A stretch of 62,482 nt of DNA from an uncultured Dehalococcoidaceae bacterium (lineage in GTDB: Bacteria > Chloroflexota > Dehalococcoidia > Dehalococcoidales > RBG-16-60-22), in assembly GCA_964456395.1 (NCBI GenBank), contig CAYWAU010000001.1, positions 1 to 62,482 of the forward strand. The letters are read 5' to 3'. Below, in pieces: positions 6,951 to 26,280 of the stretch; the stretch's first letter is position 1; each line of letters starts with the position of its first letter. The notes under the pieces are model-generated. The model searched no databases, was not told the origin of the DNA, and worked only from the letters and a program-made list of their open reading frames with translations. A program made the position numbers and the translations under genes.

Positions 6951-6953
6951 TCA

Positions 6954-8297: not shown

Positions 8298-8371
8298 TTT
8301 CCCCTCCTGTCAGGATAGTATGACGTTATCTCCATCTTTATTATTCCTTACGGGTACTGACGTTACCAGCA

Positions 8372-9322: not shown

Positions 9323-9501
9323 CCCTAATATAGTATAAAATCTCTAGTTTGATTTTAGCGTTTTTTACGGCGGCCGTAAAGCCTCTGGCACAGTCAGGAC
9401 AATGGGAAAATGCCGTAAATCCATTATTAAATTGACCAAGGGAATGGTGAAATGTCCGTTGCGGAAATGTACCGAAGAGACTTCGGTACATCAGAAACCA
9501 T

Positions 9502-10785: not shown

Positions 10786-12172
10786 CAGGTGCTTCTTCCC
10801 AGATTTTACCGGGATTGATGATGTGCTTGGGGTCCAGCACACCCTTTATCTTCTTCATAACATTGATGGCCACCGGGTCCATAGCCTTTTTCAAAAAACG
10901 CTGTTTCTCCAGACCGATGCCATGCTCACCCGAAATCACGCCGCCCAGGGACAGAGCCGCCTCAATAATCTCATCCACACATCTCAGGGCACGATTAAAA
11001 TGCTCCTGGTCCCGGATGTCCGTAAGCACCCCGGGGTGGAAATTGCCGTCTCCAGCGTGACCGGCTAAACTGACGGATACATCGCAGCGCCGGGCGCTAT
11101 CCTGACACTTCCTTACGAACTCGGCTATCTTATCACGAGGCACGGTTACATCCTCACTGAGGACGGTATATGCGGCACTGTTAATATCGGAAAAATGGTC
11201 ACTCCTGGCCTGCCAGACCTTCTCAGCCTCCGCCTGGTCCTGAGCCACCCAGACTTCTCCCGCCCCACCTCTCCTGCAGATATCAACAATCTGCTCAGCC
11301 TCCGCCTCTACTGTTTCCGTAAGACCATCAACCTGTATTAGAAGAAGGAACTGGGTATCAGCAGGCAGACTCGAAGACAATATTTCCTCAAACCTTTTTA
11401 TCGTCCAGTTATCAATTAACTCTATCTTGGCTGGCAACACGCCGTGGGCGATGATACTGGATACGGCTTCGCCAGCTACGGCAACATCGTTAAAAACGGC
11501 GACCATGGTTTTGCTGTCCTTGGGCGCCGGCAGCAGCCGCAGTATTGTCCTGGTTATGATACCCAGAGTGCCCTCGGACCCGGTAAACAGCATCATCAGC
11601 TCATAACCCGTTCTGTTTTTGGGGGTAAGGCCGCCCACGTTCATTATGCTACCATCAGCCAGCACCACCTCCAGACCAAGTACATACTGTTTGGTGACTC
11701 CGTATTTCAGGCAGGAGGGACCCCCGGAATTTTCCGCCACCACGCCGCCCATAGTGCAGCCAAAGGAGCTCTGCGGGTCCGGAGGGAAAAACAGACCCTC
11801 TTCCGCAAGGGCAACATTAAAGTCCTGAAGAATAACACCGGGTTCTACAGCGGCATGCAGGTTAGCCCTGTTTATCTCTATAATCCGGCTCATCCTGGTG
11901 GTGCACAGGACGATGCCGCCCTTTATCGGTATGGAACCGCCGCTCACGTTGGTGCCACCGCCTCTGGGAGTGACCGGTATTTCATTATCGTTAGCTAATT
12001 TTAAAATCCCGGATACCTGCCCCGCGCTTGCCGGCAGCACCACTACGTCAGGCATATGCGACCATAGAGTGGTAGCATCATATGAGTAGGCGATTAGCTC
12101 CTCTTTAGAGGTCAGCACGCTGTCTTTACCCACAATCCGGCGCATCTGGTCAATATGCTTTGATTTAATCAT
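10775..12172 (-). CDS. FAD-linked oxidase, GlcD / D-lactate dehydrogenase-like
   Basis: 465 aa. FAD-binding PCMH-type N-terminal region (PRGGGTNVSGGSIP), C-terminal GGVISGEHGIGLEK, and INPGKI tail. Confidence 0.85.
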   Translation of the reverse strand: MIKSKHIDQMRRIVGKDSVLTSKEELIAYSYDATTLWSHMPDVVVLPASAGQVSGILKLANDNEIPVTPRGGGTNVSGGSIPIKGGIVLCTTRMSRIIEINRANLHAAVEPGVILQDFNVALAEEGLFFPPDPQSSFGCTMGGVVAENSGGPSCLKYGVTKQYVLGLEVVLADGSIMNVGGLTPKNRTGYELMMLFTGSEGTLGIITRTILRLLPAPKDSKTMVAVFNDVAVAGEAVSSIIAHGVLPAKIELIDNWTIKRFEEILSSSLPADTQFLLLIQVDGLTETVEAEAEQIVDICRRGGAGEVWVAQDQAEAEKVWQARSDHFSDINSAAYTVLSEDVTVPRDKIAEFVRKCQDSARRCDVSVSLAGHAGDGNFHPGVLTDIRDQEHFNRALRCVDEIIEAALSLGGVISGEHGIGLEKQRFLKKAMDPVAINVMKKIKGVLDPKHIINPGKIWEEAPDGE

Positions 12173-12340
12173 AAAGACTCCTTAAATGTGCACCGTCAGC
12201 ATTTATGGCACACAGTGCTAATGAAACTTACAAATAATTTCGGTTGCTCTCAGTAATACTTTACCGCTTTCAAAGGCTTCCGTTCAAGCTGCTCAGGTAT
12301 CCATAAATTTCTGCCCCAAAAGTGGTGCCGGTGGTCTGAC

Positions 12341-12369
12341 TTGACAACAGGATTGCCAGTTTATAATAA
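12341..12369 (+). promoter_or_regulatory. candidate sigma70-type promoter for the Zn-ADH gene
   Basis: TTGACA at 12341, followed by TATAAT/TAATAA at about 12362-12369. Located ~50 nt upstream of the 12420 start. Confidence 0.35.
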
Positions 12370-12419
12370 TGACACCGTGTCCACCTGTAGCCAAGAATAA
12401 TTAATCACGAAGGTAAAAT

Positions 12420-13451
12420 ATGAAAGCATTGAGATGGTATGGCAGAAAAGACCTCCGCTATGAGGATGTGCCTGAACCTTCACCCGGTTCAGGGCAGTTA
12501 AAAATAAGGGTTAACCTGGCAGGCATCTGCGGTTCAGATTTGAAGGCATACGCCGACAAACTCAGTATGATTACCGCCGACAAAGTGCCGCTGACCATAG
12601 GGCATGAGTTTTCCGGGAGAGTGGCGGTGGTCGGTGAAGGGGTAGCTGACTTTAAAGTCGGAGACCGGGTCAGCGGAGTAGGCTACTGGTTCTGCGGCGA
12701 ATGTTTTTATTGTAAAAGAGGTTTATACAATCTTTGCTTGAAATCGGACTTTATGGGCATCAGCAAGGATGGCTGTATGGCTGAATATCTGATTGCCCCG
12801 AGTTATGCTTGCTACAAGCTCCCCGACTCGGTGTCTGACGAAGCCGGGGCTCTGGTAGAGCCTCTGGCAGTAGCCATTCACGCTCTTCGCCAGGGCAAGG
12901 TAAGCCCCGGGGATACAGTGGCTATTGTGGGCGATGGTGCCATTGGCCTTGGCACTCTGCTGGCAGCCAGGGTGTCCGGGGCATCTGAAATTTTTATGGT
13001 AGCCAAGCATAAGGGGAGAGGAAAAATCGCCTCGGCTATGGGAGCTACCGCGGTTATTTATCTCAGCGACGGAGACCCAGTCCAGCTGCTCCAGAATCTG
13101 ACCGGCGGCTTGGGCGCGGACGTAACTATTGAATGTGTCGGCCAGCCGGATACCCCCCGGTTAGCCGTGGAACTGGCGCGAAGAGGGGGCACCGCCGTAA
13201 TCGTGGGTGTCTTTGAAAAACCAAGCACCTTTGACTTCAGCAGCATGACGTTCAGCGAGAGAACCGCTGTGGGCAGCTCTATTTATGTGGACGAGGGCAG
13301 GACGGCTATCGCTCTTCTAGCTGACGGCAGAATTGACCCCGCCTCTTTAATTACGTCAAAAGTACCGCTTAAAGACGCGGTAAAAATGGGGTTTGAGGAA
13401 CTGATTAACAATAAGGAGAAAAATATTAAAATCCTGCTTCAAATTCCCTGA
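12420..13451 (+). CDS. zinc-dependent alcohol/polyol dehydrogenase (MDR family, butanediol/sorbitol-DH-like)
   Basis: GICGSDL and GHEFSG catalytic Zn ligands. Structural Zn loop CGECFYCKRGLYNLC. Rossmann segment VAIVGDGAIG. Confidence 0.85.
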   Translation: MKALRWYGRKDLRYEDVPEPSPGSGQLKIRVNLAGICGSDLKAYADKLSMITADKVPLTIGHEFSGRVAVVGEGVADFKVGDRVSGVGYWFCGECFYCKRGLYNLCLKSDFMGISKDGCMAEYLIAPSYACYKLPDSVSDEAGALVEPLAVAIHALRQGKVSPGDTVAIVGDGAIGLGTLLAARVSGASEIFMVAKHKGRGKIASAMGATAVIYLSDGDPVQLLQNLTGGLGADVTIECVGQPDTPRLAVELARRGGTAVIVGVFEKPSTFDFSSMTFSERTAVGSSIYVDEGRTAIALLADGRIDPASLITSKVPLKDAVKMGFEELINNKEKNIKILLQIP

Positions 13452-13530
13452 GGATGGTTCCGCTGTAGCATACATTGCGGCAGCCAGAAAATTATGTGAA
13501 CCGCCGACTCTGGAGTTTTCACCGAAAATT

Positions 13531-13554
13531 AATGTATAATGAAATGTATAATGA
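13531..13554 (+). repeat. perfect 12-nt tandem duplication AATGTATAATGA x2 (two TATAAT boxes) upstream of Fe-ADH 1
   Basis: Read directly: aatgtataatga at 13531-13542 and again at 13543-13554. A third TATAAT lies at 13579-13584. Confidence 0.6.
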
Positions 13555-13594
13555 GAAGAGACTGTTTACCTGACAACATATAATTCCGCTTCCC

Positions 13595-13615
13595 GGGCAA
13601 CCGGCAAGGTTGCCC
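13595..13615 (+). promoter_or_regulatory. 8-bp stem hairpin in the 5' leader of Fe-ADH 1
   Basis: GGGCAACC-ggcaa-GGTTGCCC, located 40 nt upstream of the 13656 start. Confidence 0.3.
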
Positions 13616-13655
13616 GTAAAATACAACATTTATCTATCATAGAAGGAGAAAAGCC

Positions 13656-14867
13656 ATGATAAATAAAGAGATGTTTGAGTTTCCCATAACCTATACCAAT
13701 GTTATCCCCAGGATAGCCCTGGGATGGGGAGCCCATGAGACGGTTGCCGATGAATGCAAAGCCGCCAAAATTAAAAAGGCGTTGATTGTGACCTCAGGTT
13801 TGAAAGGAACCGGCATCGTCGACGAAATCAAAGGAATTCTGGAGCACAATGGCGTGCCGACAGAAATCTACGACAAGATCACTTCCAACCCTAAAGACTA
13901 TCAGGTGATGGAAGCTTATAAGGTCTTGAAGGACGGTGAATGCGACGGGGTGGTTTCGGTTGGCGGCGGCAGTTCCCACGATTGCGGCAAAGGCGTTCGT
14001 GTGGTGGCGGCCAACGGCGGAAAGGACATCCTGAACTTCTCCGCGTTTATAGACCCGCCCTGGATGGAAGAGGTTAAAAAATATAATCCGTGTACTATAC
14101 CGCAAATCACGGTTAATACCACATCCGGCACAGGGGCAGAGGTTTCGTCCATGGCAACCATTACGAGTGTGAAGGGCAGGGCAAAGCTATTGATTATTGC
14201 GCCAAATATTGTTGCCGACGTAGCCATTATCGACCCGCTATTAATACGGTTACAGCCTAAAAATATTGCTGCCTGGACAGGCTTCGATGCCATGACACAT
14301 GGATTCGAGGCATTTGTAACCAAGGTACAGGGCCCCTACGCCTATGGAATGCTGCTACGGGCGATTCAGCTCATTACAGAAAATCTCAGAGACTTTACTT
14401 ACAACCGGATGAACAATATCGCCTGTGAAAGAATGTGCTGGGCGGCGACAATGGGTGGCATCGCCATCGGCTTCGGCGCCGGTGCCGGCATTGTTCACGG
14501 ATTAGGACATCAACTCGGGGCATTAACTGACTGCCACCATGGTCTGGCCAATGGTGTTCTCACAATTGCGGGAGAGAGATATAATCAACCTGCCTGTGTT
14601 GAGAAACTCGCCGTCATGACCAAAGCGATGGGAGTTGATACCAGCAATATGACTGAATCGCAGGCCGCCGAAAGGTGGTTTGATGAAATGGAAAACCTGC
14701 TGAAGGACTTGGAAATCACCCCCGGCCAGTTGAACAAGCAGTTCGGGCTTCAGGAAAAGGACTTGGAACATATTGTCAAAATATACTCCAATGACTTCTG
14801 CAGCCAGGGAAATCCGCGAGAATTCAACGCCGAGGAAGCTCTCAACGTACTAAAGAGTATACTCTAA
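13656..14867 (+). CDS. iron-containing (type III) alcohol dehydrogenase, Mno/Mdo (nicotinoprotein methanol dehydrogenase)-like
   Basis: 403 aa. SNPKDYQVMEA, GGGSSHDCGKG, TTSGTGAE, HGLGHQLG, HHGLANG, and a GNPRE tail. The overall pattern resembles actinobacterial NDMA-dependent methanol dehydrogenases. Confidence 0.8.
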   Translation: MINKEMFEFPITYTNVIPRIALGWGAHETVADECKAAKIKKALIVTSGLKGTGIVDEIKGILEHNGVPTEIYDKITSNPKDYQVMEAYKVLKDGECDGVVSVGGGSSHDCGKGVRVVAANGGKDILNFSAFIDPPWMEEVKKYNPCTIPQITVNTTSGTGAEVSSMATITSVKGRAKLLIIAPNIVADVAIIDPLLIRLQPKNIAAWTGFDAMTHGFEAFVTKVQGPYAYGMLLRAIQLITENLRDFTYNRMNNIACERMCWAATMGGIAIGFGAGAGIVHGLGHQLGALTDCHHGLANGVLTIAGERYNQPACVEKLAVMTKAMGVDTSNMTESQAAERWFDEMENLLKDLEITPGQLNKQFGLQEKDLEHIVKIYSNDFCSQGNPREFNAEEALNVLKSIL

Positions 14868-15098
14868 AGGCTTGAGGAAGCTGAAAAGCTAAACAGAGAT
14901 AAGGGCAGACCCACCTGTAATGTGAGTGGCGATAACTTCTGCGTTACACTCCTACGAGGCTTACCTACCCGTGATATGAATCACAGTGCACACAAAGTCG
15001 GCTGTCACGGCAATAGAGACAGAGCTTAACGGAGGCAACGCCGGGGTCTGGCTTCAATTTGCTTTATAATAGCTCCACTGCTAGAATGCACAGGGGGT

Positions 15099-15206
15099 GG
15101 GGAAAGCCGGTTCCCTTCATGAAACGCGATACGGGAAAACCTATGCCAAGAATCATAGCAGAAGGAGGCGTATCCAGATAAATTAAAAGGGGAAAGGCCA
15201 GTTCCC
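15099..15206 (+). repeat. two copies of a GGGGAAAG-N-TTCCC hairpin motif 90 nt apart in the ADH1-ADH2 spacer
   Basis: ggggaaagccggttccc at 15099-15115 and ggggaaaggccagttccc at 15189-15206. Each can fold as a GGGAA/TTCCC stem. Confidence 0.35.
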
Positions 15207-15266
15207 GATTAAGCAGCTATGTGGACAATAAAAATCACAATATGTAGATGAAAAGGAGGAAAGCCA

Positions 15267-16487
15267 TTGATAAACGAAAATATACATCAATTTCCTATCA
15301 TTTACGCAGGTAACTGGGGCCTGGGCAGGATTGCCACCGGATGGGGTGCCCATAAGACCGTCGCCGACGAATGCAAGCAGCTCGGTATGAAGAAGGCGCT
15401 TATTGTGACCACCGGCCTGAAAGGAACCGGTATCGTCGATGAAATCAACCAGATTATATCAACCCAGGGTGTGGCGACAGAAATCTTTAGCGGGGTAACC
15501 TCCAACCCCAAAGACCATGAAGTTATGGCAGGCTATAAGGTCTTCAAGGAAGCTCAGTGCGACGGTGTGGTTTCGGTCGGCGGTGGCAGCTCACACGATT
15601 GCGGTAAAGCAATTCGCGCTGTTGCTTCCAACGACGGAACAGATGTTTCAAACTTCCAGCTGGGGATAGACCTGCCCTGGACGGAACAGATGAAAAAATA
15701 TAAAGCATGTACCATACCGCAGGTTTCGGTAAATACCACGTCCGGTACTGGTGCCGAGAACACGGGTGGTGCCGCTATCAACCAGTCCAATATCAGGGCC
15801 AAGCGAATAGCTATAGTACCGGGGACCGCACCCAGTATAGCAATTAATGACCCCCTGCTAATCCGGTGCCAGCCGGCACACATCGCCGCCCAGACCGGAT
15901 TTGACGGTTTCTGCCATGCCTTCGAGTCATATATAGCTCGCGTGCAACCGAAGCACAGTACCGTCCTAGCCGCCGGCGCCATCAAACTGATAGCCGAAAA
16001 TCTCAGGGAGTTTGCTTTCAACCGGATGAACCATGTAGCCTGTGAAAATGTCATCTGGGCATCGTCAATGTCGGGAGCCATAGGCCTCAGTCTTGGCGGA
16101 GGTGTCGGCGTGATACACGGTTTTGGACATGGACTCTCGGCACTGTATGGCGTTCACCATGGCCTTGCCAGCGCCGTCGTTACCATCCCGGGAGAGAGAT
16201 ATAATCAATCCGAGTGCCCTGATAAATTCGCCGAAATGGCCCAGGCTATGGGTGTTGATACCAGAAATATGACCAAGATGCAGGCCTCCGATGCGTGGTT
16301 CACCGAAGTTGAAAGACTGCTTGACGATTTGAATATCCAGACCGGGAACCTGAAGCGGTTCGGTCTCAAGAAAGAGGATATCCCGCATATTGTCAGGGTA
16401 CAGCATTCGCTCGATTTGACCGTAGTGGGCAACCCCAAGGACTACAATTATGACGAGTTAGTTGCCCTGTTTGAGACTCAGCTCTAA
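15267..16487 (+). CDS. iron-containing (type III) alcohol dehydrogenase, Mno/Mdo-like paralog
   Basis: 406 aa with TTG start after AAAGGAGGAAAGCC, the same RBS context as ADH1. Same motif set: SNPKDHEVMAG, GGGSSHDCGKA, TTSGTGAE, HGFGHGLS, HHGLASA, GNPKD. Confidence 0.8.
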   Translation: MINENIHQFPIIYAGNWGLGRIATGWGAHKTVADECKQLGMKKALIVTTGLKGTGIVDEINQIISTQGVATEIFSGVTSNPKDHEVMAGYKVFKEAQCDGVVSVGGGSSHDCGKAIRAVASNDGTDVSNFQLGIDLPWTEQMKKYKACTIPQVSVNTTSGTGAENTGGAAINQSNIRAKRIAIVPGTAPSIAINDPLLIRCQPAHIAAQTGFDGFCHAFESYIARVQPKHSTVLAAGAIKLIAENLREFAFNRMNHVACENVIWASSMSGAIGLSLGGGVGVIHGFGHGLSALYGVHHGLASAVVTIPGERYNQSECPDKFAEMAQAMGVDTRNMTKMQASDAWFTEVERLLDDLNIQTGNLKRFGLKKEDIPHIVRVQHSLDLTVVGNPKDYNYDELVALFETQL

Positions 16488-16633
16488 AGACCCCAAGAAC
16501 GGCGGTTGGGAAAATGCAGTGAGATAACTGCATTGATAGCCAGCGGGTGGCAGGGAGTCCCCTGGTAATTGTACAATAATAATAGGACTTGGTACCTACA
16601 GGATAAATCATAGCGGACGGAAGGCAGGTTAAG

Positions 16634-16765
16634 ATGGGAAAAGAACAGAAATCAGCGGTAGCAACGGCGAAAAATGAGGTCAAAACCACCCAGGAAGAAC
16701 CCGAGGTTTTAGAGGAAATCGTCGTTGAAGAGCTGAGCATAGACGGCGTTTGCGGGGTATACTAA
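16634..16765 (+). CDS. mftA: mycofactocin-type precursor peptide MftA (43 aa, absent from the ORF track)
   Basis: ATG at 16634, TAA at 16763-16765. Translates to MGKEQKSAVATAKNEVKTTQEEPEVLEEIVVEELSIDGVCGVY. The C-terminal IDGxCGVY signature sits directly upstream of MftB/MftC-like genes. Confidence 0.85.
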   Translation: MGKEQKSAVATAKNEVKTTQEEPEVLEEIVVEELSIDGVCGVY

Positions 16766-16767
16766 AT

Positions 16768-17034
16768 ATGGCGTGCCGCCTGGCAAATAATATTCAGGTA
16801 AGAAAGGAAAGCTGGGGTCTGCTGTTCTATTTGCAGGACCCGCACCGGGTCTGCTTTGTCAGAAGTGGCGACTGGCTTTATCCCCGGTATTTCGACGGAA
16901 CCTGGACATTTGACAGTCTGGCCGGCGACATCGCCCGGCGTACCGGAACCCCCGCTGAGATTATTGAGCGTTCTGTCCAAAAGCTATCCAAGCACTTGAT
17001 GGATAATGGGATAATTATCAATGAACCATGCTGA
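16768..17034 (+). CDS. mftB: PqqD-like peptide chaperone (RRE), MftB
   Basis: 88 aa from ATG 16768; the track start at 16750 is a TTG inside mftA. VRKESWGLLFY...PRYF... is a PqqD/MftB-like pattern. Overlaps mftC by 14 nt. Confidence 0.75.
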   Translation: MACRLANNIQVRKESWGLLFYLQDPHRVCFVRSGDWLYPRYFDGTWTFDSLAGDIARRTGTPAEIIERSVQKLSKHLMDNGIIINEPC

Positions 17035-18046
17035 CTGGCCGTTATCCGCCCCGGTAACTATAACCTGGGAAATTACACACCAATGTAACCTCAGTTGTAT
17101 CCATTGTCTTTCCAGCAGCAATGTAGAAACGCCCGGTGAACTGGACCTGGAAGAGTGCCTGTCAATTGTTGACCAGCTGGCGGCTCTTAAAGTATTTGAA
17201 ATCAACTTTGGCGGGGGGGAGCCATTACTCAAGAGCTATCTCATCCCTCTGTTGCGTTACATTCACCAAAAGGGGATGGTGACCTGCATCAGTACCAATG
17301 GTACCGTGTTCAATGATGAGGCGGTGGCTTACTTTACGGGCAATCCCCTGGTGAATATCCAGGTAAGTCTGGATGGCGCCACCCCCGAGGTCAACGACAG
17401 GATACGCGGTCAAGGAACATTCCCCCGGATTATCAAGGGGATTGAGCTTCTGGCCGGGAGGGATATACCCCTCTCTATCAATACCGTTGTTACCTCCCTT
17501 AACTTTAAGCAGCTGGGACAGCTCAAAGAGATGGCCGGTTCCTTCGGCGCCCGGCTCCGCGTGTCGCGGTTTCGCCCGTCGGGTCGTGCCAGGGATAACT
17601 GGGAACTGTTGAGGCTGGGTCCATCGCAATTGCAGGAATTATCCGACTGGTTGAGCGATGACCAGAGTATTTTGACCGGCGACTCTTTCTTCTCTATATC
17701 AGGTGATGGCAGACGACAGCTCGGCCTGGACATGTGCGGAGCCTGCAAGATGACCTGTTGTATCGACCCCTGTGGCCTGGTTTTCCCCTGCGCCTTCATG
17801 CAGGAAAGGGATTTCTGTGCCGGCAGCTTAAAGGTGTCTTCCTTCCAGGAAATCTGGGATTCATCGGACGTCTGCCAGTATTTCCGGCAACTGGAACCGG
17901 AAGCCTGCCGGAAATGCCCTCGCTTCAATACATGCCGCGGCGGCTGTCCCGCCGTGGCTTACTTCGTCAGTAAAGACCTCAACAGCCCTGACCCTGAATG
18001 CTTGATTAATTGGAGCCGGGATATATCACCTCTATCACCAGCTTAA
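17021..18046 (+). CDS. mftC: radical SAM/SPASM peptide maturase, MftC
   Basis: CNLSCIHC (CxxxCxxC) radical SAM cluster and GGGEPLL. C-terminal SPASM Cys array (CGACKMTCCIDPCGLVFPC...CRKC...CRGGCPA). Confidence 0.85.
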   Translation: MNHADWPLSAPVTITWEITHQCNLSCIHCLSSSNVETPGELDLEECLSIVDQLAALKVFEINFGGGEPLLKSYLIPLLRYIHQKGMVTCISTNGTVFNDEAVAYFTGNPLVNIQVSLDGATPEVNDRIRGQGTFPRIIKGIELLAGRDIPLSINTVVTSLNFKQLGQLKEMAGSFGARLRVSRFRPSGRARDNWELLRLGPSQLQELSDWLSDDQSILTGDSFFSISGDGRRQLGLDMCGACKMTCCIDPCGLVFPCAFMQERDFCAGSLKVSSFQEIWDSSDVCQYFRQLEPEACRKCPRFNTCRGGCPAVAYFVSKDLNSPDPECLINWSRDISPLSPA

Positions 18047-18081: not shown

Positions 18082-20037
18082 ATGTACGGGCAATTTAAAT
18101 ATCTATTCTCACCACTACAGATAGGCAAGACAATAGTGCCGAATCGCATTTCTTTTTCCTCTCATCTAACCAACTTCGCCGAGGATAATTTACCAAGCGA
18201 GCGGCATACCTACTACCTGGCCGAGCGTGCCAGGGGTGGCGCCGGTCTGATAATAACCGAGGAACAGTCCGTGCACCCTACCGACCACTCATACGAAAAA
18301 CTCATCGATGCCTTCAAACCGGAGGTTATTCCCGGCTACCGCAGGATATGTAAGGCCGTTCATGAGTACGAAACGAAGATTTTCGCCCAGTTAAACCACA
18401 ATGGCGCTCAGGGTGACGGGACTATTTCCAGATTGCCCCTATGGGCACCTTCCCCGGTACCTGACGTGATGTTCCGGGAAGTGCCCAAGGAGATGGAACT
18501 GGAAGACATCAGGGAAGTTATTGAATCTTTCGGCAAGTCGGCAGCTCACGTCCGGGAAGGAGGCTTTGACGGTATTGAGTTGCAGATTAGCCACAGCTCC
18601 CTGCTGAGGCAGTTCCTGTCCCCTCTATCAAACCTTCGCACCGATGATTACGGCGGCAGCCTGGAGAACCGGATGAGGTTGGCTCTGGAGGTAATCGCAG
18701 CCGTTCGGGCAACGGTTGGGCTTGACTTCACTCTGGGGATGCGCCTTTGTGCCGATGAGATGATTCCCGGCGGCCTGACCCTTGACGATACCAGGGAGAT
18801 GGCACGCCGCTTTGAAGCCACCGGAAAAATTGATTTTATTGACCTGAGTATAGGAACTTTCTATAATCTTTATCTTGTCGGCGGCACGATGCACACTCCC
18901 CTGGGATATACCATTCCGCTGTCCGCCGGCATCAAAGAGGTGGTCAATCTGCCTGTCTTTGCCACCGGCCGGATTAATGACCCCGTAATGGCGGAGAGAA
19001 TCCTGGCTGAAGGTCAGGCTGACATGATTGGTATGGTACGCGCCCAGATTTGCGACCCCGAGATGGCCAATAAAGCCAGGGATGGCAGACTTGAGGAGAT
19101 AAGATACTGTGTTGCCGACAACCAGGGCTGTTACGGACGGATAGCCATGAACAAGGATATCGGCTGTATGCAAAATCCGTCCATCGGACATGAAAAGGAG
19201 ATGGGCATCGGCTCCATTAAACCGGCATCGGTTAAGAAAAGAGTATTGATTGTCGGCGGCGGGCCAGCCGGCCTGCGGGCGGCTGAGGTAGCGGCTAAAC
19301 GCGGGCATAACGTAACACTTTATGAAAAGAATGAGAAGCTGGGAGGTCAGGTTAATATTGCCGCACTTGGAACCGGACGGGAAGAAATCAGTGCTATTAT
19401 TCGTAATGAGGAGAACCAGCTTAAGATACTGCCGGTGGAAATCATCCTTAACAAAGAGGTCTCACCCGAATTCGTCCTGGCACAGAAGCCTGACACGGTT
19501 ATTATTGCCACCGGCTCGGTGCCCAAGGAAAGCCCGGTGCCGGGTGCCGACGGCACCAACATTTTCAACGTCTGGCAGGTACTTTCCGGTGAGGCAGAGC
19601 TGGGGAAACGGGTTCTCTTTATTGATTATGACGGGCATCACCAGGCCACAGCCACAGCCGAATACCTTGCCGATAAGGGTAAAGAAGTCCACATGCTCAC
19701 CTCCTCTTTATTCGTCGGGCAAGACCTGGGGCCGGTGCAGGACCTGTATCTCACCCGGCAGCGCCTCCTGCAAAAGGGCGTTACCTCTACGCCGGACTTC
19801 GCCGTCATGGAGATAAAGGGACTGGAGGTAAACGGCTTCAACGTTTATTCCAACGAGTGGCATACCTTCAGCGGCTATGACTCCATAGTGCTCGCCATGG
19901 GCAACCGTGTGGAAGACGCTCTTTATAAAGCCCTGAAAGGTAGAGTGAAAGAGCTTTACCGGATTGGCGATTGTGTGGCACCTCGCAAGATAGATATGGC
20001 GATACTGGAAGGCGATAAAGTGGGCAGGATGATTTAA
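18082..20037 (+). CDS. OYE-like FMN / Fe-S / FAD-NAD(P) oxidoreductase (2,4-dienoyl-CoA reductase / enoate reductase family)
   Basis: 651 aa. OYE TIM-barrel N-terminal half. Fe-S motif region CVADNQGC-x11-C. Rossmann segment VLIVGGGPAGLRAAEVAAKRGHNVTLYEK. Confidence 0.8.
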   Translation: MYGQFKYLFSPLQIGKTIVPNRISFSSHLTNFAEDNLPSERHTYYLAERARGGAGLIITEEQSVHPTDHSYEKLIDAFKPEVIPGYRRICKAVHEYETKIFAQLNHNGAQGDGTISRLPLWAPSPVPDVMFREVPKEMELEDIREVIESFGKSAAHVREGGFDGIELQISHSSLLRQFLSPLSNLRTDDYGGSLENRMRLALEVIAAVRATVGLDFTLGMRLCADEMIPGGLTLDDTREMARRFEATGKIDFIDLSIGTFYNLYLVGGTMHTPLGYTIPLSAGIKEVVNLPVFATGRINDPVMAERILAEGQADMIGMVRAQICDPEMANKARDGRLEEIRYCVADNQGCYGRIAMNKDIGCMQNPSIGHEKEMGIGSIKPASVKKRVLIVGGGPAGLRAAEVAAKRGHNVTLYEKNEKLGGQVNIAALGTGREEISAIIRNEENQLKILPVEIILNKEVSPEFVLAQKPDTVIIATGSVPKESPVPGADGTNIFNVWQVLSGEAELGKRVLFIDYDGHHQATATAEYLADKGKEVHMLTSSLFVGQDLGPVQDLYLTRQRLLQKGVTSTPDFAVMEIKGLEVNGFNVYSNEWHTFSGYDSIVLAMGNRVEDALYKALKGRVKELYRIGDCVAPRKIDMAILEGDKVGRMI

Positions 20038-20053: not shown

Positions 20054-21070
20054 ATGGCCAAACCAAGAGAAATCTGGGTGCTGCCGGAGATAAACAACAA
20101 CGAAGAGGAAATCGGCAAGCTGAGCCTGGGACTCCTCTCCGAAGCCAGCTATATTGCGGGAAAGGCTGGCGGCACCGTAACCGCCCTGGTGCTTGGCGGC
20201 CAGAGCCAGGACTATTCTGAAGTCCTCGGTCAATATGGAGTCGCCAAGGCGTATATATTTATAGACCCTGTTCTTGAATACTTCTCCGCGGAGGCTTACT
20301 CGGCGGCTCTGCTGCCCAGAATTCAGGAAGATAAACCCTGGCTTCTGCTTATGGGCAACACCACCATCGGCAGGGAGCTGGCTCCCCGGCTGGCGGCGTT
20401 TTTCGAGACAGGCATAATCTCAAACTGCGCTAAAATGGACATATCCCATCCGGAGAGTCCGATATTCTTTCGCCTGATTTACGGAGACCAGCTCTACCAG
20501 GAGGTAATCTTTCAGACCAGCCAGACAATGCTGGTAACCATGGACCCGAGAGTTTTAAACATAAACCCTGTTGCAAAAAGGAGCAAAGCAAAAACTCTGG
20601 TGATTGAGCCAAGACTGTCTCCGGAGGTAATAAGGGCAGAGCATCTGGAATTCCTGCCGGCCGATTTCAAAACCGTGGATGTTGCCGAAGCTGATACTAT
20701 TGTCTCCGCTGGTATGGGAGCCGCCACTGACGAACTGCTGCCTCTGGTTGAGGAACTGGCCGGTCTGATTGAAGGCACTATCGGCACCACCCGGCTGGTT
20801 GTTGACGGCGGGCAAATATCCCGGGAGCGGATGATTGGACAAACCGGTAAGGTGGTCAGCCCGGAGCTCTACCTGGCTCTGGGAATATCGGGGGCGACCC
20901 ACCACGTCGGCGGCATTCAGGACTCGGGAAAAATCATCTCAGTTAACCGCGACCCGCAGGCTCCAATCTTCAGGAATTCCGATGTAGGCATAGCGGCTGA
21001 TATTAAGGACGTATTGCCCAAACTAATCGAAAAAATCAAGCAGGCTAAAAGCAATGGCACAATACTTTGA
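20054..21070 (+). CDS. fixB: electron transfer flavoprotein alpha subunit (FixB/EtfA)
   Basis: 338 aa. C-terminal FAD-binding motif LYLALGISGATHHVGGIQDSGKIISVNRDPQAPIF. Confidence 0.85.
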   Translation: MAKPREIWVLPEINNNEEEIGKLSLGLLSEASYIAGKAGGTVTALVLGGQSQDYSEVLGQYGVAKAYIFIDPVLEYFSAEAYSAALLPRIQEDKPWLLLMGNTTIGRELAPRLAAFFETGIISNCAKMDISHPESPIFFRLIYGDQLYQEVIFQTSQTMLVTMDPRVLNINPVAKRSKAKTLVIEPRLSPEVIRAEHLEFLPADFKTVDVAEADTIVSAGMGAATDELLPLVEELAGLIEGTIGTTRLVVDGGQISRERMIGQTGKVVSPELYLALGISGATHHVGGIQDSGKIISVNRDPQAPIFRNSDVGIAADIKDVLPKLIEKIKQAKSNGTIL

Positions 21071-22352
21071 TGTTATCATAGTCGGAGCCGGACCAGCCGG
21101 CAGCATGGCAGCCCTTAAACTGGCTCGAGCCGGACTGAAGGTTGTTATGCTGGAACGGGGCCAACGCCCCGGCTCCAAGAACATGTTCGGCGGGCTGCTT
21201 CACAATACGCCGGCTCTGAATGAAATGCTGCCTGCTTTCTGGGAAAGGGCACCCCTGGAACGGCACGTGTTTCAAAAAGTTCTTGCCTTCATGACCCCGA
21301 CTTCTTCCGTTTCCATGACCTTTGAAACCGAAAAATTTGAACAGCCTCCCTACAACGGCTACACCGTATTCCGTCCCGTTTTTGACAACTGGCTGGCTGG
21401 CGAAGCCGTCAAAGAAGGGGCTTTATTACTCTGCGATTGTACGGCCGAGGATTTGATTCAAAAAGACAGACAGGTGGTCGGCGTCACCGTTAAAGGCAGG
21501 GACGGCGAACTGAGAAGCAGCATAGTCATCGCGGCTGACGGAGTCCTGTCTTTTATGGCTGAAAAAGCCGGCCTGAGGCAAGATTTCCGCGCCGCCGACA
21601 TGGGCCTGGGCATCAAGCTCCTCCTGGGCCTGCCCGAGGCAACCATAGACGAGCGGTTCCACCTGGCCCGGGATGAAGGGGCTGACATCAGCTTTGTAGG
21701 CACGACAAATGGACTGCGCGGCGGCAGCTTCCTCTATACCAACCGTGAAAGTATCTCCATCGGCATGGTAGTGCATCTCGACTCGCTGAGGGCATCGGGT
21801 AAAGCCCCCTATCAGGTTCTGGATGAATTACTGCTGCACCCCCATGTCAGAAAGCTGCTCAAGGGCGCCGAGCCGCTGGAATACTCGGCACACCTTATCC
21901 CGGAAGGCGGCATCAAGGCAATACCAAAGCTTTATACCGGCGGGATGCTGGTCGTCGGCGACGCCGCCGGTCTGTGTTATACCAACGGCATCAATCTGGA
22001 AGGAATCAACCTGGCCATGACTTCCGGAGCGCTGGCTGCCGAGACGGCTCTGCAGGCAATAGAAGCCGGAGACTACAGTGCCCGGATGCTGTCATTATAT
22101 AAAAAGAAGCTGGACGGCAGCTTCATCATGAAAGATATGAAAACGTTTAAAAACGCCGTCGGCATGATGCATATGGAGCGACTGTTTCAGGCTTATCCGG
22201 AAATTGCCGGCAATATACTGGAAAAGATATACAGAGTTGAAGGCGTCCCCAGGCCAAAACTCCTGCGCCTGGCACGAAAAGAAGCGCTGAAAAAAGTGAA
22301 ACTGACAGACCTGGTTTCAGACGGCATTAAAATAGGCAAGTCATTATTATGA
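21054..22352 (+). CDS. fixC: FAD-dependent ETF:quinone-type oxidoreductase FixC
   Basis: 432 aa. FDVIIVGAGPAGSMAALKLA dinucleotide fold and GDAAG motif. Sits between fixB and fixX. Confidence 0.8.
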   Translation: MAQYFDVIIVGAGPAGSMAALKLARAGLKVVMLERGQRPGSKNMFGGLLHNTPALNEMLPAFWERAPLERHVFQKVLAFMTPTSSVSMTFETEKFEQPPYNGYTVFRPVFDNWLAGEAVKEGALLLCDCTAEDLIQKDRQVVGVTVKGRDGELRSSIVIAADGVLSFMAEKAGLRQDFRAADMGLGIKLLLGLPEATIDERFHLARDEGADISFVGTTNGLRGGSFLYTNRESISIGMVVHLDSLRASGKAPYQVLDELLLHPHVRKLLKGAEPLEYSAHLIPEGGIKAIPKLYTGGMLVVGDAAGLCYTNGINLEGINLAMTSGALAAETALQAIEAGDYSARMLSLYKKKLDGSFIMKDMKTFKNAVGMMHMERLFQAYPEIAGNILEKIYRVEGVPRPKLLRLARKEALKKVKLTDLVSDGIKIGKSLL

Positions 22353-22624
22353 ATGTTGATAATTTACCGCAACTAACACAATTCCAGGTTGACGAACAGC
22401 CCCATATTGTCTTGAATAAGGAAATCTGTCAGTCCTGTGACCACCGTGCCTGTGTCCAGTCGTGTCCGGCTAACTGCTATACCTTCGATGAAGCCACCAG
22501 AATGATGAGCGTCGTCTATGAGACATGTCTGGAGTGCGGCACCTGTTACGTAATTTGTGACCAAGGAGCCATTGATTGGAGCTACCCCAGGGGTGGCTAC
22601 GGAGTATGCTTTCGCCTGACCTAG
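22349..22624 (+). CDS. fixX: ferredoxin-like protein FixX
   Basis: 91 aa. CQSCDHRACVQSCP and CLECGTCYVIC motifs. ATGA overlap with fixC. Confidence 0.8.
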   Translation: MNVDNLPQLTQFQVDEQPHIVLNKEICQSCDHRACVQSCPANCYTFDEATRMMSVVYETCLECGTCYVICDQGAIDWSYPRGGYGVCFRLT

Positions 22625-22655
22625 AACTGAAGCCCGGCATGACGTGGTAATAGCC

Positions 22656-23558
22656 ATGAAGATTATTGTCTGCTTGAAAGAGGTGGTTGATACTAATCTG
22701 AGCCTTGGTTTCGGCTTGAGCAACCGGGTGGTCTTCCAGGAAGGACTGCCGCTCAGGCTGAATCCGGATGACACCGAGGCACTGGCAAAGGCACTCAACC
22801 TCAAACAGTCAGATGATGAAGCCCAGGTTGAAATCACCCTCATCTCTATCGGCCCGGAAAGGGTGGAGGGCTACTTAAGAGACGGACTGGCTCTTGGAGC
22901 CAACAGAGCGGTGCGCATACGGCAGGACAGCCTCATGGAGCTATCTTCTCATCAAAAAGCCAGGCTACTGTCCAGAGCCGTTTCTCTATTTGGTGCCGAC
23001 CTCGTTTTAACCGGAGCCGGGAGTCTGGATACCGGCAATGGTCAGGTAGGCCCGCTGATGGCGGCCTGGCTTGACCTGCCCTGTATCGGCGAAGTGGTCG
23101 GATTTAAGCTAGCCGATGAAAAAAAGAGCATCACGCTAACCAGAGACATCGGCAGAGGCGCCCGGGAAAAGATACGGTGCTCTCTGCCGGCGGTCATAAC
23201 CGTGAAAGGAGAAGGAAAACTACACTATGCTTCTCTGGATAGGCTTGTGGAGAGTAAATATGGTGAGATAATTCGGCTTACTCTGGCTGACCTTGGTACA
23301 TCTGACGTTGAGTTGAAAAATGACCCCACCAGGATTACTGGTCTGGCTTACCCGAGGCCCAGGCCCAGGAAAACACCGGCGCCAGAAAGCTCGTTACCGG
23401 CGTTTTACAGAATCCTGAAGCTACTGGAGGGAGGCATCTCCCGGCGACAGGGGGAAATGCTCCAGGGCAGCAGCCAGGAGCTGGCTGACCAGCTCTTTGA
23501 GCTACTTATAGAAGAGGGCGTGATTGAGTCAGCCACAGAAAAGGGCTCCGGTAAATGA
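22656..23558 (+). CDS. fixA: electron transfer flavoprotein beta subunit (FixA/EtfB) with ~40-aa C-terminal extension
   Basis: MKIIVCLKEVVD is a typical EtfB N-terminus, and the ORF ends in a Pro/Arg-rich linker plus tail. GTG at 22644 is an alternative start. Confidence 0.8.
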   Translation: MKIIVCLKEVVDTNLSLGFGLSNRVVFQEGLPLRLNPDDTEALAKALNLKQSDDEAQVEITLISIGPERVEGYLRDGLALGANRAVRIRQDSLMELSSHQKARLLSRAVSLFGADLVLTGAGSLDTGNGQVGPLMAAWLDLPCIGEVVGFKLADEKKSITLTRDIGRGAREKIRCSLPAVITVKGEGKLHYASLDRLVESKYGEIIRLTLADLGTSDVELKNDPTRITGLAYPRPRPRKTPAPESSLPAFYRILKLLEGGISRRQGEMLQGSSQELADQLFELLIEEGVIESATEKGSGK

Positions 23559-23602: not shown

Positions 23603-25051
23603 ATGGCAGGATTTGGCTTTTCATTAGCGGACAACACCTATTTAAGAGAAGACCCCGACGGTAATTTTCTGCTCTCCAATCTGCCCCTGAGAATACTCCG
23701 AATAAACAAACCTCTCTTCCGACTCCTCAAGCACCTCCAGGGGGGTGGCGAATTGCCCGAATTTGTCAGTCAGAACCCGGGGCTGGAGGAGGGGCCTTTG
23801 CTGAGGGTCCTGCTGTCTCTGGCATCCAGGGGATACCTGAAATTAGAGAGAATAGCCAAAATAGAAGACTACCCCATCGTCTCCATTGTCATTCCAGTCC
23901 GAGACCAGCCTGAAGATATCATTGAGTGCCTCCAATCGCTGAGAAATCTGGATTATCCGGGAGACCGGTTTGAAGTTATTGTGTTAGATGACGGTTCCCA
24001 GGCTGAAGTCTCTCAGGGTGTTACTACTCCCGATGTTATGGTCATCAGGCAAGACGAGTCACGGGGCGCCTCTGTCTGCCGAAACATCGGGGCTGAAAAG
24101 GCTCGCGGCAAAATCCTGGCCTTTCTGGACGCCGACTGTATTGCCCCTGAGAACTGGCTAAAGGAAACCATTCCCTTTTTCAAAACGGCGACGGTCGGGG
24201 CGGTAGGCGGTTATGTGGACGGCTATTACAAAGACAGCTATCTGGACCGGTACGAAGAGGTCTCTTCATCGCTGAACATGGGGAAGCGGCTCCTCCTGGA
24301 AGGCAATACGGAATCAAACTTTTATGTGCCTACGGCCAATATGCTGATTAACAGGGACGCCTTTATGGCTACCGGTGGTTTCAGGAGCGGTATGCACCTG
24401 GGTGAGGACGTGGATTATTGCTGGCGAATGAGAAACCTCGGCTACACCCTGCTCTACGTTCCTTTTGGCAGGGTTGCCCATAAGCACCGCAACCGCCTCG
24501 GTAAAATGCTGAAAAGACGGAGCGAATACGGGACATCGGAAGCCAGGCTCTACCTCATTCACCGGGATAAAAGGAAGACCTTTCTCATTTCTGTCTGTGC
24601 CGGATTATCTTTCCTGGCCCTGACCCTCTCTGTTTTGCTTTTAAATCCTTATCCCCTCTGCCTTATCCTGTTATTATTCGGGATTGACCTGCTCCGGAAA
24701 TCCGGCACGCTGAGGAAGTTCAAAATGCTGCTTCCTTTCCGACAAATAGCCTGCGCCACCCTGAGAAGCTATTTTTCCTCCTATTATTTCGCTCTGTTTC
24801 ACCTGGTAAGATATTACCTGTTCTTAATATTTGGGCTCGGCTTCTGGCTTCACTCCGTGTGGCTTTTTGGCGGCCTGGCGGTGCTCTTCACATCAATCGT
24901 AGATTATTCCGTAAAAAAGCCGAATCTGCCTTATCCGGCCTTCCTTTTCTTTTATGTCCTGGAACATCTGGCATACCAGATAGGGGTTCTCCGGGGGTGC
25001 CTAAAATTAAAATATTTCAGGTCGTATATCCTTTCCTTCAGGCGTGCCTGA
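23603..25051 (+). CDS. mftF: family 2 glycosyltransferase with membrane-spanning C-terminal region, MftF-like
   Basis: 482 aa. N-terminal PqqD-like segment (LLSNLPLRILRINKPLFRLL). GT-A core (VSIVIPVRDQ, VLDDGS, FLDADC). Hydrophobic C-terminal ~140 aa. Same transcription unit as mftABC. Confidence 0.7.
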   Translation: MAGFGFSLADNTYLREDPDGNFLLSNLPLRILRINKPLFRLLKHLQGGGELPEFVSQNPGLEEGPLLRVLLSLASRGYLKLERIAKIEDYPIVSIVIPVRDQPEDIIECLQSLRNLDYPGDRFEVIVLDDGSQAEVSQGVTTPDVMVIRQDESRGASVCRNIGAEKARGKILAFLDADCIAPENWLKETIPFFKTATVGAVGGYVDGYYKDSYLDRYEEVSSSLNMGKRLLLEGNTESNFYVPTANMLINRDAFMATGGFRSGMHLGEDVDYCWRMRNLGYTLLYVPFGRVAHKHRNRLGKMLKRRSEYGTSEARLYLIHRDKRKTFLISVCAGLSFLALTLSVLLLNPYPLCLILLLFGIDLLRKSGTLRKFKMLLPFRQIACATLRSYFSSYYFALFHLVRYYLFLIFGLGFWLHSVWLFGGLAVLFTSIVDYSVKKPNLPYPAFLFFYVLEHLAYQIGVLRGCLKLKYFRSYILSFRRA

Positions 25052-25089: not shown

Positions 25090-26280
25090 ATGAAGATAAA
25101 TATTAAAGGTGATTATTATCGGGCGGCCGTCAGGTTGCTGGGCAACGCTCTCAGGTTCCGCTATTCAAAATTTACGGGAGCCCCTTTAAAGCCGGCGGTA
25201 GTCAGTCTGGCAGTGACAAATCGCTGTAACTCCCATTGTATCATGTGCAATATCTGGCAGAGAGCCAGGGAGCTACCCGGTATCAAGAGTCTGGAGATGC
25301 CCCAGAAAGAGATTCTGGACTTATTATCACGTCCCCTGTTTTCAGAGCTGGTTGAGCTGGACTTAACCGGCGGCGAGCCTCACCTGAGAGATGACCTGGT
25401 TGACATCGCGCTCAGCATAGCCAGTCTCAAAAAAAGCTCTCTGCCAAGACTGAGGAGCATCATCATTACCTCTAACGGCTTATTACCCCGACAGGTAATC
25501 TCAAACCATCAGAGAATTCTGGAAGGTTTAAAAGGCACAAATATAGACCTGGTCAGTGTTGCCTCAATGGATGGGATTGGGGAAACTCACGACTTTATCA
25601 GGGGAACCAGGGGTGCTTTTGAACTGGCTACCAAAACAATCAGCGGGCTTCTGGAACTCAGGAAGAAATACCCCGATTATTTCATCGGCATAAAAACCAC
25701 AATCCTGCCCCAGAACGTCAATAGTCTTGATGCTATTCTGGATTATGCTCTGGAAAAGAATATTTTTCATATCATTTCACCGGTCTTCTTCACCGAAGCG
25801 AGGTTCAGAAATACGGACAAAATAGATGAATTAACGCTGGGACCTGATGAATATAAAGAGGTCCTGAAATTTTTCAGTCGTGATGAATTAAAGACGAGCT
25901 ACTTCTACCCTTTGGCACGAAGCTTCCTGGCTACCGGGCGAAAGCAATGGGCGTGTACCGCCTTTCACAACTATCTGTTCATCGATTTTGACGGAACGGT
26001 ATATCCCTGCGAACTGATATCCGAGCCAATCGGTAACGTCAGAGAGCAGGACGTGGCGGACATCTGGAACGGTGCCGAGGCTCGTCACTGGCGGAAAAGA
26101 ATCGGGAAACTGGAATGTTGCCGTACCTGCAATGAGCCCGGCGCGATACGGTACAGCGCCTGCACCGAGGGATTCAGCTACCTTAAGTTTTTGGTGAAGC
26201 TCGGCAGGCAAAAATTCCGTAAGACCCTTTACGGAGAGGGTTTTTACAAATATTTTGGTGATTTACAGGCAAAGAAATGA
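25090..26280 (+). CDS. second radical SAM / SPASM-domain protein of unknown substrate
   Basis: 396 aa. CNSHCIMC (CxxxCxxC), LTGGEPHL, and C-terminal Cys-rich region (CTAF...YPCE...CCRTCNEPG...C). Starts 38 nt after mftF. Confidence 0.75.
   Translation: MKINIKGDYYRAAVRLLGNALRFRYSKFTGAPLKPAVVSLAVTNRCNSHCIMCNIWQRARELPGIKSLEMPQKEILDLLSRPLFSELVELDLTGGEPHLRDDLVDIALSIASLKKSSLPRLRSIIITSNGLLPRQVISNHQRILEGLKGTNIDLVSVASMDGIGETHDFIRGTRGAFELATKTISGLLELRKKYPDYFIGIKTTILPQNVNSLDAILDYALEKNIFHIISPVFFTEARFRNTDKIDELTLGPDEYKEVLKFFSRDELKTSYFYPLARSFLATGRKQWACTAFHNYLFIDFDGTVYPCELISEPIGNVREQDVADIWNGAEARHWRKRIGKLECCRTCNEPGAIRYSACTEGFSYLKFLVKLGRQKFRKTLYGEGFYKYFGDLQAKK

Follow-up and report, generated by a model that had tools for sequence, protein, structure and literature searches.

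An iron-sulfur flavoprotein of the FadH/OYE family with an aspartate in its cluster motif is encoded in place of MftD in mycofactocin cassettes

The experimental work on mycofactocin in the literature that we searched has all been performed on mycobacterial clusters that use MftD, a premycofactocin synthase dependent on flavin mononucleotide (FMN), whose step has been described as aerobic (PMC8406134). About 25% of the genomes that encode the maturase MftC lack MftG, whose replacement in these organisms is an open question, and a midpoint potential of about -255 mV has been quoted for the PMFT/PMFTH2 couple (PMC11778925). Among enzymes related to the 2,4-dienoyl-CoA reductase FadH, the second-largest group of 2-enoate reductases ('cluster 2', OYEBi) contains an Ala at the position of Cys337 of FadH, and an enzyme of this Ala-type was found to retain its [4Fe-4S] cluster and to catalyze the oxidative demethylation of N-methylproline, which proceeds by cleavage of a C-N bond (PMC11759058, RSC Chem Biol 2025). 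Here we describe a gene termed OYE2, located at positions 18082-20037 on the plus strand of the window, by which we refer to the entire stretch of 62,482 nucleotides that was analyzed and that belongs to the genome bin of an uncultured, Dehalococcoidales-like member of the Chloroflexota (78% complete). OYE2 is a three-domain Fe-S flavoprotein that shares the architecture of FadH and trimethylamine dehydrogenase (TMADH), and it is found in mycofactocin cassettes that do not contain MftD.

The reading frame of OYE2 comprises 651 codons without internal stop and contains all strings quoted in an earlier interpretation of the locus from its letters alone (the sequence-only reading), including RYCVADNQGCYGRIAMNKDIGCMQNP and VLIVGGGPAGLRAAEVAAKRGHNVTLYEK. 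Translation and Pfam searches bear out the description given there of a protein of 651 residues with an OYE and a Rossmann half, encoded right after mftC, with 35 nucleotides separating the mftC stop at 18046 from its start and 16 nucleotides its end from etfA. On the profile TIGR03997, with a curated cut-off of 793.15 bits, the protein scores 962.4 bits (962.1 in the genome scan), with residues 8-651 matching profile positions 2-645, and the next-best NCBIfam profiles are BaiCD and bilirubin reductase. The name of TIGR03997, one of the mycofactocin-associated families of Haft, is already attached to close homologues in NCBI and JGI records, and OYE2 belongs to this family as a regular representative rather than founding a new one. 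No paper that discusses the family was found in the literature searched. Its features are the following:

18082-20037, plus strand: OYE2, mycofactocin system FadH/OYE family oxidoreductase 2, 651 residues (TIGR03997, 962.4 bits; AlphaFold2 model with pLDDT 95 and pTM 0.92)
18103-19092, plus strand: FMN-binding TIM-barrel (OYE) domain, residues 8-337 (Pfam PF00724, Oxidored_FMN, E 4.7e-62)
19108-19167, plus strand: predicted [4Fe-4S] binding motif C343-x2-D346-x3-C350-x11-C362 (from the sequence; aligned to the ligands of 1ps9, 6qkg and 1djq)
19255-19272, plus strand: GGGPAG dinucleotide-binding motif of the middle Rossmann domain, a FAD or ADP site, residues 392-397 (Pfam Pyr_redox_2, NAD_binding_8)
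19618-19644, plus strand: degenerate second dinucleotide (NAD(P)H) site, residues 513-521, FIDYDGHHQ (aligned with GCGGIG of FadH)

The Pfam domain Pyr_redox_2 (PF07992) extends over residues 387-619. In an alignment of 81 orthologues, 153 of the 651 positions are invariant, which in the barrel include Gln103, His106, Gln168, His171, Ser173, Arg221, Cys223 and Arg320 and in the GGGPAG motif Gly392, Gly394, Pro395 and Gly397. The invariant set that is particular to the family consists of Glu60, Glu61, His65, Asp68, Tyr71, Gln168, His171, Ser173, Cys223, Asp225, Glu226, His271 and Tyr276. Further FadH/OYE-type paralogues are found in the host genome bin on contigs C136, C188, C4, C78 and C28 and none on the contig of the window; the copy on C4 remains under the TIGR03997 cut-off with 543 bits, and two others contain the motif C-x2-C-x2-C-x12-C (CLRCNVC...C).

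A first distinguishing feature of OYE2 concerns its distribution with respect to MftD (TIGR03966). We surveyed 301 genomes of Actinomycetota, which served as positive control and test, and 401 genomes of Chloroflexota, which served as replicate. Among the 32 MftC-positive genomes of the former, 24 contain MftD, 7 OYE2, none both and one neither, and among the 26 of the latter, MftD is found in 4 (all of one genus), OYE2 in 21 including the genome of the window, both in none and neither in one. In the pooled set of 58 MftC-positive genomes from two phyla, 28 thus have MftD only, 28 have OYE2 in its place, none has both and two have neither, a table that overstates the number of independent events since the sampled genomes are mutually related. 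In the genome of the window, the best match to MftD reaches 28 bits and resides on another contig, with none found at the OYE2 gene. MftD is equally absent above its cut-off in 24 other genomes carrying the cassette (0/24), among which are two isolates, Geobacter argillaceus and Geobacter sp. OR-1, as well as one complete Desulfobacter chromosome of 5.8 Mb. All cassette genomes of Geobacteraceae, Syntrophorhabdales and Dehalococcoidales that were checked contain OYE2 and no MftD. In canonical clusters MftD is encoded directly 3' of MftC (e.g. in genomes G176, G135 and G163), and it is this slot that OYE2 occupies, as the sequence-only reading had stated. Its idea of a non-orthologous replacement of MftD has gained strong comparative support from the lack of any co-occurrence in the 58 genomes, a strict exclusion that is not stated in the literature searched.

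The distribution of two other proteins, MftG and MftE, further defines this relationship. MftG was detected in 8 genomes with MftD and in none of the 31 OYE2 genomes tested. Since the 16 genomes that contain MftD and lack MftG are all devoid of OYE2, it is the absence of MftD rather than that of MftG that OYE2 follows. For the peptidase MftE, the genome of the window shows only a creatininase-family match of 84 bits (cut-off 172) on another contig, and none of the 24 other cassette genomes has an MftE above the cut-off (0/24). Within the Chloroflexota, MftE is kept by some families and not by others, and in five OYE2 genomes of the Actinomycetota a canonical MftE is retained together with a paralogue, OYE_1 (TIGR03996). 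As the latter organisms keep MftE but lack MftD, they would be expected to form the free amine AHDP and to require a deaminase. The OYE2 of MftE-containing types has four Cys residues. A coupling of MftE to the presence of a tandem OYE pair was considered and rejected, since the Chloroflexota family f42 contains the pair and no MftE above the cut-off. The actinobacterial arrangement, which lacks MftD and has four Cys in both OYE proteins, is illustrated by one locus:

7430-17128 of locus L114 (G197:C1:260000-279999): actinobacterial variant with mftC, OYE_1, OYE_2, mft_etfA (over the cut-off), fixC, mft_etfB, mftE and a mycofactocin-coupled SDR

The second distinguishing feature of OYE2 is located in the loop that connects the barrel to the Rossmann domains, which reads C343-V-A-D346-N-Q-G-C350 followed by eleven residues and C362. 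The respective codons are found at 19108-19110 (Cys343), 19117-19119 (Asp346, GAC), 19129-19131 (Cys350) and 19165-19167 (Cys362). In phmmer alignments, Asp346 shares its column with the second cluster Cys of FadH from E. coli (1ps9, CIGCNQAC), the 2-naphthoyl-CoA reductase NCR (6qkg, CTACNQGC) and TMADH (1djq, CIGCNV-C), whereas Cys343, Cys350 and Cys362 match the remaining three ligand columns, so that the proposed Cys-to-Asp exchange holds against all three enzymes and the four-Cys motif C-x2-C-x2/3-C-x11-C of FadH and 2-enoate reductases is absent. The only invariant Cys residues of the 81 orthologues are 223, 343, 350 and 362, and a relocated fourth Cys was rejected, as no alignment column contains a Cys particular to the Asp-type sequences. 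A sequencing error or a pseudogene was likewise rejected as cause of Asp346 in light of the intact reading frame and of the Asp present in 120 of the 121 closest proteins, the remaining one having Cys.

In the 80 orthologous loci from species-representative genomes, position 346 is occupied by Asp in 55 and by Cys in 25 cases and by no other residue, and across about 200 orthologues it is exclusively Asp or Cys, with Ala, Ser and Gly never occurring. When four-Cys outgroups are used to root a maximum-likelihood tree, at least five changes between the two residues are required, at least three of which are forced by well-supported branches, and the minimum remains five if the motif columns are excluded. 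Asp is basal in all three main clades, with Cys reappearing in an actinobacterial subclade, in a pair of Syntrophaceae and within Geobacteraceae. As the site is encoded by GAC or GAT for Asp and by TGC or TGT for Cys, each switch takes two nucleotide substitutions. Apart from this site, only residue 363, adjoining the fourth ligand, varies in step with it, being Ile in Asp-type and Val in Cys-type sequences; this covariation is suggestive, with three independent pairs that all point in the same direction, although the comparison is underpowered (p about 0.25). The alternation of Asp and Cys at the second ligand position of TIGR03997 is not stated in the literature searched.

The restriction of the site to Asp or Cys and the repeated two-base switches between them argue for a cluster that is retained with Asp as ligand. 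We infer that the side chain at position 346 has to be capable of binding iron and that the carboxylate of Asp346 would act as the fourth ligand. The loss of the cluster, which had earlier been listed beside Asp ligation and a 3Fe form, appears unlikely in view of the three invariant Cys residues and of a fourth site that is only Asp or Cys. It is also unlikely that Asp346 does not bind iron and that the protein contains either a [3Fe-4S] cluster or a [4Fe-4S] cluster in which one iron is open or bound to water. Such an arrangement would find a parallel in the mentioned 2-enoate reductases, in which Ala is common at the same position and one enzyme keeps its [4Fe-4S] cluster (PMC11759058), and in remoter homologues of OYE2, where position 346 is mostly Cys and in some cases Ala, Ser, Val, Tyr, Asn or Gly. 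Asp-ligated clusters, as in the ferredoxin of Pyrococcus furiosus, are moreover readily converted to 3Fe forms. Within the orthologues, however, the tolerance of Asp and Cys alone and the recurrent two-step switching between precisely two metal-binding residues speak against this arrangement, and we prefer Asp ligation over the 3Fe form. Taken together, the sequence-only reading is supported in part, and had not noticed the family name, the absence of MftE and the alternation of Asp and Cys.

Aspartate at this position is also found outside of the orthologous group. A contig from a soil metagenome (L117) encodes mftA, mftB and mftC followed by two tandem FadH/OYE genes (4471-6423 and 6450-7565), both with Asp at the second cluster-ligand position and the first being 44% identical to OYE2. 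A FadH-like protein that is 41% identical to OYE2 and not linked to mft genes (P0176, L118:3443-5383) contains the same exchange of Cys to Asp. Its gene is accompanied by one for an electron-transfer flavoprotein (ETF) subunit and one for a large Fer4/CCG (HdrD/GlpC-like) Fe-S protein, with AMP-ligase-like, two CMD and cupin genes located upstream, and it constitutes a second instance of the Asp variant in an ETF setting.

The structural properties of OYE2 were investigated in an AlphaFold2 model calculated from 49 sequences. The top Foldseek matches by E-value are NCR and FadH (TM 0.90-0.92; 1ps9, 6qkr), which are also the best PDB matches by sequence (phmmer; NCR E 5e-95, FadH E 1.8e-87). 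The best superpositions are obtained with histamine dehydrogenase (TM 0.95, root-mean-square deviation 2.0), TMADH (0.94, 1.9) and the amine oxidase HisD (0.93, 2.1), and the modelled fold of OYE2 thus appears closest to ETF-linked amine dehydrogenases. The glycine-rich NAD(P)H motif in the C-terminal domain of FadH (GCGGIG) is missing in OYE2, where the corresponding region reads IDYDGHHQA and, like the equivalent LNADTYFMA of TMADH, is poor in glycine, with Asp515, Asp517 and Gly518 being invariant in the family. The degeneracy of this second dinucleotide motif renders unlikely a role linked to NAD(P), which had been offered as one option by the sequence-only reading. In the active site, the proton-donating Tyr of the reductases (Tyr166 in FadH, Tyr196 in OYE1) is replaced by the invariant Ser173.

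In a scan of species-representative genomes, proteins that are 65-85% identical to OYE2 were found in 80 loci, in which the gene order mftA-(B)-C-OYE2-etfA-fixC-fixX-etfB-mftF is kept wherever the length of the contig allows. The orthologues are linked to mft genes in every sufficiently long locus. The cassette is distributed over Chloroflexota, Thermodesulfobacteriota, Actinomycetota, Acidobacteriota and Goldiibacteriota, with hosts in Dehalococcoidales, Geobacteraceae and other Desulfuromonadales, Syntrophorhabdales, Gaiellales, Thermoleophilia and one bin each of Acidobacteriota and Goldiibacteriota. Dehalococcoidales, Geobacteraceae and Syntrophorhabdales are typically anaerobes. Across phyla, OYE2 is 65-72% identical and thus more strongly conserved than any other cassette protein, with MftC at about 50% and the ETF subunits at 30-40%, and this strong conservation would fit an unchanging small molecule as substrate together with partner proteins. 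In related loci whose contigs extend far enough, both etfA and etfB are located in the immediate neighborhood of OYE2, and the cassette of these loci conserves neither a CoA-ligase gene nor any other gene of a substrate pathway. In the window, the genes form an operon-like run on the plus strand, which starts with a Zn-dependent alcohol dehydrogenase (Zn-ADH) followed by two of the Fe type (Fe-ADHs) and continues through the cassette to a second radical SAM/SPASM gene:

13656-14867, plus strand: first of two tandem Fe-ADH paralogues upstream of mftA (operon-like run)
15267-16487, plus strand: second Fe-ADH paralogue (operon-like run)
16634-16765, plus strand: mftA, precursor peptide of 43 residues with the C-terminus IDGVCGVY (from the list of open reading frames; conserved upstream of mftB/C in related loci)
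16750-17034, plus strand: mftB-like chaperone, a weak match (TIGR03967, 22.9 bits, cut-off 33; position conserved in related loci)
17021-18046, plus strand: mftC, divergent radical SAM/SPASM maturase (TIGR03962, 347.8 bits, cut-off 265)
20054-21070, plus strand: etfA, ETF large subunit (Pfam ETF, ETF_alpha; follows OYE2 in nearly all related loci)
21054-22352, plus strand: fixC-like ETF:quinone oxidoreductase (NF007450, 350 bits; PF21162, ETFQO_UQ-bd)
22349-22624, plus strand: fixX-like ferredoxin (NF011993, E 4e-15)
22644-23558, plus strand: etfB, ETF small subunit (Pfam ETF)
23603-25051, plus strand: mftF glycosyltransferase (TIGR03965, 335 bits, cut-off 280)
25090-26280, plus strand: second radical SAM/SPASM gene directly 3' of mftF (below every NCBIfam cut-off)

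The mftB-like frame has no match in Pfam and overlaps with mftA by 16 and with mftC by 14 nucleotides. On TIGR03962, the MftC proteins of the OYE2/ETF cassette type score 314-348 bits, those of the Chloroflexota family f42 406-430 bits and canonical ones 575-672 bits, and the subtypes of MftC appear to follow the type of cluster. The best PDB matches of the EtfB of the window are a FixA-type protein (7koe, 80 bits) and the ETF beta subunit partnering with TMADH (1o94_C, 78 bits), so that bifurcating and non-bifurcating kinds score about equally. At least the second Fe-ADH contains the sequence TSNPKDHEVM, which is close to the hotspot TSNPKDYEVH that Haft has linked to mycofactocin-dependent Fe-ADHs (PMC3023750). 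The second radical SAM/SPASM gene recurs 3' of mftF in several loci of Dehalococcoidales, and a gene about 40% identical to it is found in some loci of Thermodesulfobacteriota (L021, L024, L026, L044, L048, L049 and L052 being listed for this gene).

In the mechanism that we propose, OYE2 would oxidize carbon 3 of the mycofactocin lactam core in systems without MftD, to generate the redox-active alpha-keto amide independently of molecular oxygen and thus carry out what in canonical systems is the aerobic task of MftD. The electrons would pass from FMN to a [4Fe-4S] cluster held by Cys343, Cys350, Cys362 and presumably the carboxylate of Asp346, and further via the co-encoded EtfAB and FixCX to the quinone pool, with the Rossmann domain probably binding FAD or ADP and offering no site for NAD(P)H. 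At the same carbon, OYE2 may also re-oxidize the reduced mycofactocin, a role that would justify a dedicated outlet consisting of ETF and FixCX. Judged from comparative sequence evidence, we consider the chances about even that OYE2 is such an oxygen-independent substitute of MftD acting on the mycofactocin core, with or without a function in recycling.

Several observations weigh against this assignment. The residues that define the active site of TMADH (Cys30, Tyr60 and Trp264) are not conserved in OYE2. MftE is missing from the cassette type found in the window and the free-amine substrate of MftD may thus never form, an absence that a simple swap of MftD leaves unexplained. In Actinomycetota and some Chloroflexota a second paralogue, either OYE_1 or a tandem copy, could be the true substitute. 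The exclusion of OYE2 and MftD is inflated by the kinship of the genomes, with the pattern spanning several families and two phyla, and the host genome is just 78% complete. Finally, four dedicated electron-transfer genes seem too many for a step that occurs once per cofactor molecule, which favors a process of high flux such as recycling. It is in this respect that a function confined to recycling deserves attention, where OYE2, as mycofactocinol:ETF oxidoreductase and analogue of MftG, would connect mycofactocin-dependent alcohol dehydrogenases via ETF and FixCX to quinone, possibly with electron bifurcation, and the keto group of the cofactor would be made by another enzyme. This account, to which we assign a clearly lower yet appreciable probability, draws on the integration of OYE2 into a five-gene unit with etfA-fixC-fixX-etfB, on the lack of MftG in all OYE2 genomes tested, on the quarter of MftC genomes in general whose MftG replacement is sought (PMC11778925), and on the genes for mycofactocin-type Fe-ADHs and a Zn-ADH directly upstream, and at the potential quoted for PMFT/PMFTH2 the transfer to quinone would be downhill. 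However, it does not account for the fact that MftD is universally absent in OYE2 systems, and the 16 genomes that have neither MftG nor OYE2 but do have MftD underline that the distribution follows the latter. Both functions are not exclusive, since one active site could perform both oxidations.

Two further explanations appear improbable to a similar degree. In one of them, OYE2 would work in the reductive direction as FadH, NCR and enoate reductases do, on an unrelated unsaturated or aromatic substrate or on mycofactocin itself, with low-potential electrons provided by ETF and FixCX, and its linkage to mft genes would reflect a shared redox supply instead of cofactor biosynthesis. The matches to NCR and FadH as closest PDB sequences and to BaiCD and bilirubin reductase as next NCBIfam profiles would be in line with such a role, as would be the pair Gln168/His171 at the site where OYE proteins bind the activating carbonyl of the substrate and the location of the otherwise unrelated Asp-type protein P0176 next to genes for an ETF subunit and a CCG-type Fe-S protein in a context resembling aromatic-acid metabolism. 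In contrast, the proton-donating Tyr is replaced by Ser173, the cassette conserves no substrate-pathway gene, and neither the very high conservation over five phyla nor the strict exclusion of MftD would be expected for a peripheral catabolic reductase. The other explanation applies to the cassette type of the window, which contains neither MftE nor MftD, and here it is a distant prospect that OYE2 alone replaces both by an oxidative scission of the N-C-alpha bond in the modified MftA peptide. This bond of the cross-linked C-terminal residue would be dehydrogenated while still on MftA, hydrolysis of the resulting acyl-imine would free premycofactocin and leave behind an amidated peptide, and the two electrons would exit via the Asp-ligated cluster to ETF and FixCX, thus providing a route to the cofactor that requires neither oxygen nor a peptidase.

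Should OYE2 form or regenerate mycofactocin and use ETF as its electron acceptor, this would explain the supply of the cofactor in organisms that lack MftD and often belong to anaerobic lineages, and it would bear on the question of what re-oxidizes mycofactocin where MftG is missing (PMC11778925). The complementarity of OYE2 and MftD provides a concrete hypothesis that is directly testable, and the natural variants with Asp or Cys in the same gene context offer a ready-made set for studying how a carboxylate tunes a [4Fe-4S] cluster involved in electron transfer.

Collectively, OYE2 combines features of several described enzymes. With MftD it shares the use of FMN and the location of the gene right after mftC, and it may resemble MftD in function although, as judged from its domains, it is not a member of that family, since MftD is of the unrelated alpha-hydroxy-acid oxidase type (PF01070, compared to PF00724 in OYE2) and has no Fe-S cluster and no link to ETF. 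With FadH (1ps9) and NCR (6qkg) it shares the architecture of FMN-binding TIM barrel, cluster loop and Rossmann domains and also the spacing of the cluster motif (x2, x3, x11), which is of the FadH and not of the TMADH type. It differs from both by the Asp at the second cluster ligand, by the degenerate counterpart of GCGGIG, by Ser173 in place of Tyr166 of FadH, and by the lack of a CoA-ester pathway in its surroundings.

The enzymes of the TMADH group, including histamine dehydrogenase and HisD, superimpose best on the model of OYE2 (TM 0.93-0.95, deviations of 1.9-2.1). They are amine dehydrogenases containing FMN, [4Fe-4S] and ADP that oxidize C-N bonds, which is the chemistry of MftD. Like OYE2, TMADH lacks an NAD(P)H motif, and its His172 and Arg222 correspond to His171 and Arg221. 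TMADH transfers electrons from its cluster to ETF, as illustrated by the structure of their complex (1o94), and in OYE2 the ETF genes are located next door. In contrast, Cys30 of TMADH, which forms the 6-S-cysteinyl bond to FMN, is Leu29 in OYE2, and the aromatic bowl is absent, with Tyr60 replaced by Glu61, Trp264 by Leu263 and Asp267 aligned to a gap, so that of these residues only His172 is matched. The OYEBi group resembles OYE2 in the non-Cys residue at the same ligand position and in the replacement of the catalytic Tyr, but it contains Ala or another non-polar residue and uses NADH, whereas in OYE2 Asp alternates with Cys and the NAD(P)H motif is missing. The study of this group mentions neither an Asp at the ligand site nor mycofactocin (PMC11759058), and the presumed Asp ligand of OYE2 adds a further type of residue to the non-Cys ligand position described there. 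With an Asp in a column of Cys ligands and the alternation of Asp and Cys among its orthologues, OYE2 is a candidate for an Asp-ligated [4Fe-4S] protein of the Pyrococcus furiosus ferredoxin type.

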